Shown: piece after piece, positions 2,440 through 5,400 of the stretch
Layout: each line of letters opens with the position of its first letter
How positions within the stretch are numbered: position 1 is the first letter of the stretch
Assembly (NCBI GenBank): GCA_964567985.1
Contig: CAZMPV010000001.1
Coordinates: 1-26,791, forward strand
Length of the DNA stretch: 26,791 nt
DNA from: an uncultured Gemmatimonadaceae bacterium
Lineage (GTDB): Bacteria > Gemmatimonadota > Gemmatimonadetes > Longimicrobiales > Gaopeijiaceae
Direction of reading: 5' to 3'
Position numbers and translations under genes: made by a program
The notes under the pieces: generated by a model
Database searches by the model: none
Seen by the model: only the letters and a program-made list of their open reading frames with translations
What the model was told of the DNA's origin: nothing

Positions 2440-5400
2440 CTACCCGGGCCGCTGGACTTCCAGGAAGACGACCTCGTCCACCGTGTTGTCGTCCGGCAGC
2501 GTCAGCAGGTCCTGCTCATCCGAAGACAGCTGCACGACCTCGCTGCTCGGAGCATCCACCAGGAGCCCCCGGCCCTGGAGCTCCTGGACGATGGACTGGA
2601 GCCGGGCCCTGGCCGGCCGGTTGTCCGGCGTCTCCGGGACCGCCAGCTCCACCCGGTCGTAGCGCATGTTCAGCCCGGCCAGCAGGTCCACCTGCGCGTC
2701 GGTCAGGGGCTCCTCCAGCGTCCCGTCGACCTCGAAGTCCACCACGAGGCTCCCGTCCCGAAGCAGGATTTCGCGCCCACCGTCGACGGCCTCGTAGGCG
2801 ACGATACGAGCGGTACGCTCCCTGCCGGCCACGACCATGGTGATCGCGTCGGCGGGCATGCCCACGTCCTCGGGAACGTCCAAGACGCGAATCATGGCGT
2901 CGGAGATTCCATCCAGGCCCTGGATCAGAGCCTCCGCCTGGGCCTCCCGGGGCTCGGTCTCGTCCGGGGCCGCGAAGACCAACGCCCCCCCCGCCGTCAT
3001 GCCGGGAAAGGCAGAGTCCCATCCGGCGTCGATCGCCGCCATTCCCGCCGAGTCGGGCGTCGTCCCGCCCACGGGGAAGTCCACCCGCCCCAGGATCGTG
3101 CCGACCTCGGCGAGGAACTCCTCGGTGATGGCATCGCCGATGTCGTCGCGGCTGAAGGAGATGCCCTCCTCGCCCTCCACGCCCACCACCAGGTGAGTCG
3201 TCGTGGCCGGCTCTTCCTCCGGCTCCTCCGGAGGTTCCCCGGCGCCGGTGGCCACCACCACCACCCCGTCCGCCCCCGTGACATCGAGCCCCGGCGGAAG
3301 GGCCGGGAGCCGGACCGAGGTGGCGTCGGCGTGGAGTGGCGTGGCCTGGCCCAGCGTCGCCTCCAGACGGTCCAGCCGGCCTTCGGCCAGGACCGGGCCG
3401 TCCTCCGCGGCCTCTCCGCGGCTGGCGATGGCCCCCAGCACGATCGAGCCGCCGGGCCCGGCCTCCCGCCACGCGTCCAGGACCGAGGCCGCCGGCGTGG
3501 TGAGGGAGACACCGTCGCCGGAGAAGGTGACGGGGCCGACCTCCACGGGTCCGAACTCCGTGAGCGCACCGGGATCGTCGGAGCGCAGGGCCTCCAGGAG
3601 CCCCTCGACGTCCGACTCCGACGAGCCGAGTCGCGCGCGCTCCTCCTCGATCGCCTGCATCAGCTCCTCGACATCCTGGATGGTGAGGGGCTCGGCGCCC
3701 CGGGCGACTCGCACCTGGTTCACGATGGCGAGCGCCCCGTTGAGGTCCCCGACGCGAACGAGCTCCTCGGCCTCGTCCAGCATGGCGGACACCTCGTCCT
3801 CGCCTCCGTCGTCACCGGCGAGTCCCACGTGGTACACGCGGTAGCGTCGGTCCCGGGTCGGCGCGGGCCGCGTGGGCCGGGGGGCGCACTCCTTCACGCG
3901 CCGGCGGTGGAAGAGGACCCACTCCCGGGTGGCGTGGACGGGGGGCCCTTCCTCGGGCCGCTCCCGCTGGAAGAGCTCGGCCTCGGCGCGGGGCTGGAAT
4001 GCGGGATCGTCCAGCCCTCGTCCGATCAGCTCCAGGGCCGCGACCGCTCGCTGGTGGGCCGGGTGGTCATTCTCCAGCACCCGGTCGTCGCGCTCGGCCG
4101 TGGCCGTGGCGGGCTCGAAGACCCGCTCATCGGTGGTCGCGTCCTCCGGGGCCAGCAATACTTCGAGCTCGGTTCCGGGCTCGCCGTCCACGACGTCCAG
4201 CACGATCTCGGCCGTCTGCAACCCCACGTGGGAAACGACGACCCGCTGGTCCGTACCGAGGACGTCCCGGAGCACGAAGCCGCCGTCGGCGTCGGTGAGC
4301 GCCCCCCGTTCCGTGCCCTCGATCACGACCTGCACGCCGGCCAACGGGTTCCCGTCCTCCAGCGTCCGGACCACGCCCCGGATGACGCCCTCGGACGCCG
4401 GTCCCACCTCTTCGATCCGGGATTCGTCCTCGATCGTCTCGACGCTCCGGATCCGCAGCACGCCGTCCACGTGATCCTCCTTCCGCACGCCGGTGACCGT
4501 GACGGCGGTGCCGCTCTCGTGGCTCAGCCGGAGCACGAGGCTCGTGGGACCGTCCATCGGCCCCCGGAGCCGGAACTCGGCCGACAAAGCGATGCTGGTG
4601 CTTTCCACCGGCAGGGGATCTCCGTCCAGCGTGGGCTTGAGGAGGAGGACGACCCGTCGGAAGCGACCCTCCACGGTTCGCTCGCCGCTTCCGTCGTCAC
4701 CGGCCACGCTGCCGACCTGAAGCGTTCCCTCGGCCTCCACCTCCACCGTTCCGGCCTGGCCCTCGGCCGCCGCCCCCAGGGCGGCCTTCAGGGTACAGGG
4801 GAGGGGATCCCCCGCTTCCAGGGCGAAGGGATCGGCGTCGTAGCGAAGCGTGGCCCACGCTCCGGCCTCCAGCTCCTCCAGCGTCCGATCCACCGTCCGG
4901 ATGTCGGCCTCCACGGCCAGGTTTATCCGGTCATGCCGGACATCCGCGCCGCCGACCGTGCCCGCTCCACTGCCATCCTCCGCCTCCTCGCCATCCCTCT
5001 CCTCCTCGAAGACGTCGCCCAGGGCCTCGCCCAGCAGCCGGGCGAGGGCGGGAGGCAGGGCGCTCGGCGAGCCAGCCCAGCGCAGGATCCCGCCCTCGCC
5101 GTCCCGGTCCAGGGCCCGGGCCACCCCCCGGACCGTAGCGGAGGGGAGCTCGACGACGCCGCCGGTCGAGTGGTGCGTCGGCGACGAAAACTCCGCATTC
5201 CGGACCTCGGTCACGTCGCCGTAGGCGTTCGCCGGGGGCGTGACCTCCAAGGTCACGTCATAGAGCCCCGTGGCGCCCGCGCCGGGCCGCACCGTGCCGT
5301 CGGGCACCAGGACGTCCACCTCGGGCATGCTCACCGGATCGGCCAGCCCCTCCAGGAGCGAGATCCGCTCCATGTGCTGGACCTCCTCCAGCGCGTGGGC

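Follow-up and report, generated by a model that had tools for sequence, protein, structure and literature searches.

The window analysed here is the whole of a 26,791-nucleotide stretch of DNA from an uncultured Gemmatimonadaceae bacterium (contig CAZMPV010000001.1). It is 74% GC, and nearly all of it is taken up by one minus-strand operon of an extracellular contractile injection system (eCIS). The operon begins with the sheath, tube and CIS_tube genes, followed by a gpD hub and a VgrG-type spike and then by gp25, Baseplate_J and Tail_P2_I; after several genes of unknown product come an AAA+ ATPase, a 485-amino-acid (aa) protein, a 1450-aa protein and a DUF4157/eCIS_core cargo protein. Our subject is a short helical segment inside the 1450-aa protein that resembles part of SusD/RagB, a family of nutrient-uptake lipoproteins (Table 1).

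We read the 1450-aa protein, for which an identical protein record exists (P0002), as a Cis13-class tail-fibre-like component, because of its match to the CIS13 model, its operon context, its pattern of conservation and the literature on Cis13, Afp13 and Pvc13. The match to NCBIfam CIS13_fam (E 5.1e-9) reaches 35.8 bits against a cut-off of 370 and covers model positions 6-77 alone, and on its sequence the protein would fit the curated family only in part. As in the Cis13 class, the gene stands in the operon after the baseplate genes (Cis11/Cis12), with Baseplate_J and Tail_P2_I upstream and the eCIS_core cargo gene downstream. Gene order is identical at the locus of the nearest relative, P0004 (49% identity), a syntenic eCIS operon from an NCBI metagenome-assembled genome. 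Over its first ~500 residues the 1450-aa protein shares ~50% identity with hundreds of others, spread across many phyla; then comes a variable middle, and conservation returns in two blocks, A and B; the named genomes of the nearest relatives belong to Longimicrobiaceae and other Gemmatimonadota. In Anabaena, Cis13 is a fibre-like trimer whose N-terminus binds the baseplate and whose distal part determines the attachment site (PMC8894136), and Cis13, Afp13 and Pvc13 are regarded as target-recognition fibres (PMC12210884). The preliminary description of this DNA had called the protein a fibre-like structural component, an assignment that its Cis13-like N-terminus and its gene's position between the baseplate genes and the DUF4157 cargo gene support. 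The CIS13 model matches the N-termini of both the 485-aa and the 1450-aa protein, which points to a pair of fibre-like proteins that share a docking domain; the P0004 locus holds a 505-aa counterpart of the 485-aa neighbour.

The 53 residues originally quoted as SusD-like are exact in position and sequence (aa 1004-1056), and acidic stretches flank them on both sides, as had been stated. They lie in the linker between blocks A and B, which is 92 aa long here and 87 aa in P0004, compared with 23-39 aa in 117 of 119 homologues and 23-38 aa in all 52 species-representative genome loci with both blocks (ten of them Gemmatimonadota). Block A, with invariant W, V, R-R-R and C columns, ends in a β-strand, and the alignment gap that follows is clean: other members have the strand R-R-Y-x-x-Y-H-V-x-L, then 2-4 residues, then a conserved helix, and in the 1450-aa protein aa 992-1056 intervene between this strand and this helix. 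Linker lengths and alignment gap bear out the proposal that the segment was inserted into a conserved scaffold, and the alignment of homologues shows that it is lineage-specific and not part of the native fold throughout the family. Thus, at the level of sequence, the comparison shows an in-frame insertion of ~65 aa, at what would be a surface loop between the conserved β-strand and the conserved helix.

The extra ~65 aa are confined to the 1450-aa protein and P0004. These two form a clade (100/91) in a tree built from the first 520 residues, and their sister group, P0005 and P0006 (100/100), lacks the insert, which places its gain on the stem of this two-member clade, whose members are now 49% identical. 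With aa 996-1066 as query, a word-indexed search of 5.8 billion proteins recovered the 1450-aa protein alone. The insert has a GC content of 0.706 and a third-position GC content (GC3) of 0.925, compared with gene-wide window means of 0.727 and 0.905, and by this measure it carries no foreign base-composition signature.

Table 1. Features of the 1450-aa protein and its paralogue, in coordinates of the window.
Feature	Residues	Position	Strand	Basis
Gene for the 485-aa paralogue adjoining the 1450-aa gene, same Cis13-like N-terminus	1-485	6795..8252	minus	CIS13_fam E 4.8e-9, aa 25-100
Gene for the 1450-aa protein (P0002), read as a Cis13-class tail-fibre-like eCIS protein	1-1450	2440..6792	minus	open reading frame and translation
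Cis13-like N-terminal (baseplate-docking) region	32-98	6499..6699	minus	NCBIfam CIS13_fam, partial match
CarboxypepD_reg β-sandwich	804-889	4126..4383	minus	PF13715 E 5e-13, PF13620 E 1e-11
Conserved block A, ending in a β-strand before the insert	900-992	3817..4095	minus	120/120 listed homologues
Insertion of ~65 aa, acidic loop and three helices	992-1056	3625..3819	minus	linker lengths, alignment gap
SusD TPR4-like hairpin and following helix	1004-1056	3625..3783	minus	profile searches, hhalign
Predicted insert helix 1 (model residues 108-124)	997-1013	3754..3804	minus	AlphaFold2 model md782c24ce9ee
Predicted insert helix 2, holding the N-x-V-R motif	1017-1030	3703..3744	minus	AlphaFold2 model
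Predicted insert helix 3, holding I-E-E-E-R-A	1041-1055	3628..3672	minus	AlphaFold2 model
Conserved block B, downstream of the insert	1085-1195	3208..3540	minus	119/120 listed homologues

Profile comparisons show homology between the insert and the best-conserved stretch of SusD/RagB, namely the hairpin of the fourth tetratricopeptide repeat unit (TPR4) and the first half of the next helix. The insert carries the TPR4 signature (A-E-A ... G ... A ... N-x-V-R-x-x-x-G-x-x-P ... E-R), and the residues that both orthologues keep unchanged (A, G, A-L, N-x-V-R, R-G-A-x-P and I-E-E-E-R-A) are SusD signature positions. With a profile built from two sequences, the segment and its P0004 orthologue, the top match among PDB sequences is the SusD-like protein BF3747 (3qnk; E 0.0074, ungapped over 50 residues), and hhalign against a SusD-like domain alignment gives a probability of 96.7% (E 3.7e-10, 52 columns). 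An exhaustive search of 1.84 billion (1.84e9) representative proteins returned eight that pass E 1e-3: the two fibres themselves, five TPR-repeat proteins and one SusD, P0130. This last is the sole match in a single stretch over profile positions 7-56 (E 1.7e-4 library-wide); it is a true SusD (PF07980 at E 1e-26, with PF14322 as well) and shares 51% identity with the segment over 49 aa. The TPR-repeat matches span only the first ~30 profile positions, and their scores sum 3-5 hairpin-only stretches. Across 301 genomes of the phylum the profile finds matches in 71, and eight of the ten best open reading frames (ORFs) encode PF07980 proteins, with the match at the C-terminal site where it would be expected.

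The resemblance to SusD is also beyond chance, as the shuffle control, hhalign and the P0130 match together indicate. In a control set of 30 SusD loci picked by Pfam alone (280 ORFs including six-frame decoys), eight SusD ORFs score at least 12 bits, the highest 18.5; 200 column-shuffled profiles run on the same set yield a mean of 0.01 ORFs at or above 12 bits, with a maximum of 12.3. The HMMER comparison proposed in the preliminary description came out divided: the Pfam SusD_RagB model falls short of its threshold, and reciprocal profile searches do find SusDs. Specifically, PF07980 matches the segment at E 0.016 and 15.3 bits (gathering cut-off 23.1; profile positions 169-219), ranking second among all Pfam families, scores 11 bits in the C-terminal half, and gives no match at E 0.1 when run on the whole 1450-aa protein. 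None of the Pfam TPR families (TPR_1, TPR_2, TPR_12 and others) matches the segment up to E 10.

The predicted fold agrees with this assignment. In an AlphaFold2 model of aa 890-1450 made with 52 homologues (mean predicted local distance difference test score, pLDDT, 87.6), the modelling check suggested at the outset gave a confident result, in which the insert is a compact three-helix unit of the form helix-turn-helix-loop-helix, like TPR4 of SusD with the start of its next helix. Means of pLDDT over 10-residue blocks range from 72 to 97 across the insert, and an 11-residue loop precedes helix 3. The layout recurs, and aligns, at residues 292-352 of the modelled SusD fold of the fibre relative P0018, described below, with insert helix 1 aligned to helix 292-305. 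A Foldseek local match to 3qnk covers 60 columns at a root-mean-square deviation of 2.8 Å and 33% identity (E 0.33). As a model, the structure appears compatible with a SusD origin without being decisive. Elsewhere in the protein, the last domain (aa 1341-1448; 2446-2769, minus strand) bears a weak likeness to the OmpA C-terminal fold of the peptidoglycan-binding type (VIA Z 6.0 to 5wtl; Foldseek matches to MotB, Pal and YfiB at E ~0.4-1.5).

We consider it likely that the segment is a SusD-derived three-helix knob that stays folded and either decorates the surface or makes contacts there, and that it has no SusD-type activity. The insert would have persisted as a helical knob, folded and exposed to solvent. 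Its invariant SusD signature residues would stabilise the hairpin, in which case their conservation would reflect upkeep of the fold and not binding of glycan or SusC. The most likely role would be structural: within the distal fibre half, the knob would act as a spacer or offer a surface for protein contacts. Several observations weigh against this reading. The direct Pfam SusD_RagB match lies under the gathering score, TPR-repeat proteins take the five best E-values of the exhaustive search, and in VIA-align the same 66 residues score Z 7-8 against HPt domains and designed bundles and Z 6-6.5 against SusDs, the latter at the expected place, so that the structure does not discriminate, generic helical bundles scoring as well as SusDs or better. 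Additionally, the insert occurs in two sequences only and its conservation is therefore weakly sampled, a high-identity donor was not found, and from the present data a neutral passenger is indistinguishable from a functional module. Finally, the eCIS may be decaying, since the assembly shows the AAA+ ATPase gene broken by a frameshift. It is spread over two overlapping minus-strand frames, 9427-11682 (751 aa), which holds the winged-helix N-terminal part, and 9657-11165 (502 aa), which holds the AAA domain (PF00004, E 2e-24); at the orthologous locus the ATPase is one intact gene of 675 aa, and either a frameshift or an error of assembly explains the split.

The first three of these points would equally fit a module that does not derive from SusD at all, a generic TPR-like or three-helix unit, which may have arisen de novo or come from another TPR protein, and which converged on the helical-hairpin pattern. 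We judge this unlikely. The TPR matches reach only the first ~30 positions and the sole single stretch of 50 residues is a SusD at 51% identity, the motifs of the loop and third helix (G-x-x-P and E-R-A) are also common with SusD, SusD_RagB ranks second in Pfam where no TPR family appears even at E 10, and the best ORFs of the phylum genomes are predominantly PF07980 proteins matched at the expected site. The same fibre family, moreover, contains whole SusD folds.

These whole folds are found in P0018 (L069:2005-6405) and P0029, fibre relatives that form a separate Gemmatimonadota clade in the tree and are 38-41% identical to the 1450-aa protein over ~980 aa; on the P0018 contig two eCIS_core genes lie downstream. 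Both proteins end in a ~390-aa region, ~320 residues of which align with SusD-family ORFs (E 1.6e-26), and which matches SusD of the window's own genome at E 1e-16. The AlphaFold2 model of the P0018 region has a predicted template modelling score (pTM) of 0.89, all of its top 50 Foldseek matches in the PDB are SusD structures (best E 1.6e-9), and P0018 retains the full SusD C-terminal motif. The complete C-terminal fold is limited to these two fibre clusters, in which, judging from the model, it could plausibly form a glycan-binding tip of the eCIS fibre. The literature searched describes neither an eCIS fibre ending in a SusD fold nor any fusion of SusD with an eCIS fibre, and the novelty claimed for the fusion in this locus accordingly stands within that literature, where the one paper to name both SusD and eCIS is unrelated. 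A 1392-aa open frame with a SusD match in the relative G061 was set aside as unrelated to the fibre. Four other large surface-type proteins (P0131-P0134, 867-911 aa) end in a P0018-like SusD module at 38-40% identity, one of them from a Gemmatimonadaceae metagenome-assembled genome and the others with RCC1 and Big_2 domains; the P0018-type module is thus fused to several surface-protein architectures.

In a third kind of relative, P0071 (residues 704-754) and P0123 (760-810), a piece resembling SusD TPR4 lies upstream of block A, and the best matches of this piece among the 280 test ORFs are SusD frames. Counting the loop insert, the C-terminus of P0018 and P0029, and this site, SusD material has entered the fibre family at three positions. 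It is conceivable, at a low probability, that Gemmatimonadota-type fibres repeatedly recruit SusD targeting modules, with a glycan-reading tip in P0018 and P0029 and the three-helix piece as part of the recognition or triggering apparatus. On equally slender odds, the piece would not be passive in that apparatus and might, for example, offer a contact surface to a partner protein or to the 485-aa paralogue. Less probable still is a functionless vestige, the three most stable helices left over from a complete SusD-fold domain. Whole SusD folds fused to relatives of the fibre and isolated TPR4-like remnants at two other positions in the family would suit such a history, but no larger insert occurs at this site in 119 homologues and 52 loci, and the full domains are C-terminal, outside the loop, and belong to a different clade.

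CarboxypepD_reg sandwiches are widespread among surface proteins. The one in the 1450-aa protein is of the type found at the N-terminus of SusC-type transporters and aligns with positions 4-80 of the SusC/RagA model TIGR04056 (E 1.9e-8). It is common to P0004, P0005 and P0018, and since it is present in P0005 and P0018 it predates the SusD-like insert. The insert itself is not a functional SusD, since it has neither TPR1-3 nor the ligand-binding region nor the C-terminal motif. A complete SusD fold, with four TPR units and a ligand-binding region, is absent from a piece of 65 aa and three helices, the flanks of which belong to the scaffold common to SusD-free homologues. Of the C-terminal motif E-R-x-x-E-L-x-x-E-G-x-R-x-x-D-L-x-R, E-E-R-A alone is kept before the acidic linker begins. 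Nor is there a separate lipoprotein gene beside a susC-type gene, the insert being embedded in a gene of the eCIS operon.

In the dextran SusD, the TPR pairs (α1/4, 5/6, 7/8 and 12/13) form a scaffold that faces the surface, TPR3 and TPR4 are separated by the ligand-binding region, and the hinge-loop contacts to SusC are made by α1 and α4 of TPR1, by Phe164 and by the TPR2-3 loop (bioRxiv 10.64898/2026.02.19.706672). SusC is also contacted from the ligand-binding region (bioRxiv 10.64898/2026.02.19.706672; PMC7974029), and the glycan contacts of SusD come from the variable region (PMC7974029). The motif of the insert sits at TPR4, because P0018 matches residues 363-426 of the dextran SusD 9sjj. 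From this analysis, there is no good reason to expect the insert either to bind glycans or to dock on SusC. The earlier suggestion that it binds or mimics SusC is unsupported on these grounds: the counterpart of the segment in SusD is TPR4 with the beginning of the helix after it, the described SusC contacts lie elsewhere, and the ligand-binding region is absent. Functional SusD mimicry, in which the segment would dock on or compete for SusC-like TonB-dependent transporters on target cells, thereby guiding the eCIS, is therefore very improbable, for although the protein has a CarboxypepD_reg domain, the host and its relatives encode SusC-SusD pairs, and the insert is kept in two diverged orthologues, TPR4 is on the surface-facing side of the scaffold outside the described contacts (bioRxiv 10.64898/2026.02.19.706672), 65 of ~500 residues cannot recreate the large lid interface, and the CarboxypepD_reg domain is older than the insert.

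As to its source, the SusD-derived knob would have arisen from a SusD-family gene through illegitimate recombination, at a time between the divergence of the P0005/P0006 lineage and that of P0004. The genome (79% complete) has at least three adjacent susC-susD pairs, on other contigs. Capture from the host's own SusD family, as first proposed, finds no support here: the comparison with the host's susD genes gave weaker matches (8-11 bits for its three SusDs) than other genomes' SusDs did, and the insertion is older than the divergence from an orthologue now 49% identical. The host's own genes were rejected as the donor, no recent capture being visible. The donor was probably an ancestral SusD gene that cannot be named.

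Targeting by eCIS is determined by their fibres, and to our knowledge there are few natural examples of module gain by such fibres outside Photorhabdus and Serratia. Here, a fibre family in a SusD-rich phylum draws on the nutrient-uptake lipoprotein family of its hosts for modules, and the relatives with a whole fold point to a way, open to testing, by which an eCIS could be directed to glycans. The insert of the window is real and rare, too small for a SusD role and most likely a helical decoration. By itself it is a modest curiosity, with a structural role that we infer, and according to the model it would be a clean case of a sub-domain insertion that still folds.

Compared with SusD/RagB proteins (PF07980; BF3747, 3QNK; Bacteroides thetaiotaomicron SusD, 3CK7), the insert has the TPR4 signature and the helix-turn-helix-loop-helix layout, but it represents ~65 aa of a ~500-aa fold, lacks the lipoprotein signal, TPR1-3, the ligand-binding region and the C-terminal E-G-x-R-x-x-D-x-R-R motif, and lies in an eCIS gene instead of beside susC. 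With Cis13, Afp13 and Pvc13 the 1450-aa protein shares a CIS13_fam-like N-terminus, a gene position downstream of the baseplate genes, and a conserved proximal and variable distal part. It is much larger, however, its CIS13_fam similarity is restricted to ~70 residues and falls far under the cut-off, and its distal half consists of α/β domains with the CarboxypepD_reg sandwich and the SusD-derived insert. P0018 and P0029 belong to the same fibre family and phylum-level branch and took their added module from the same source family, but theirs is a whole C-terminal fold of ~390 aa, whereas here a three-helix piece sits in an internal loop and was acquired independently. The arrangement also recalls the receptor-binding proteins of phages and tailocins, which carry lineage-specific foreign modules distally behind a conserved baseplate-docking N-terminus; their modules are usually complete binding domains, whereas the module in this fibre is a sub-domain fragment of a nutrient-uptake lipoprotein.

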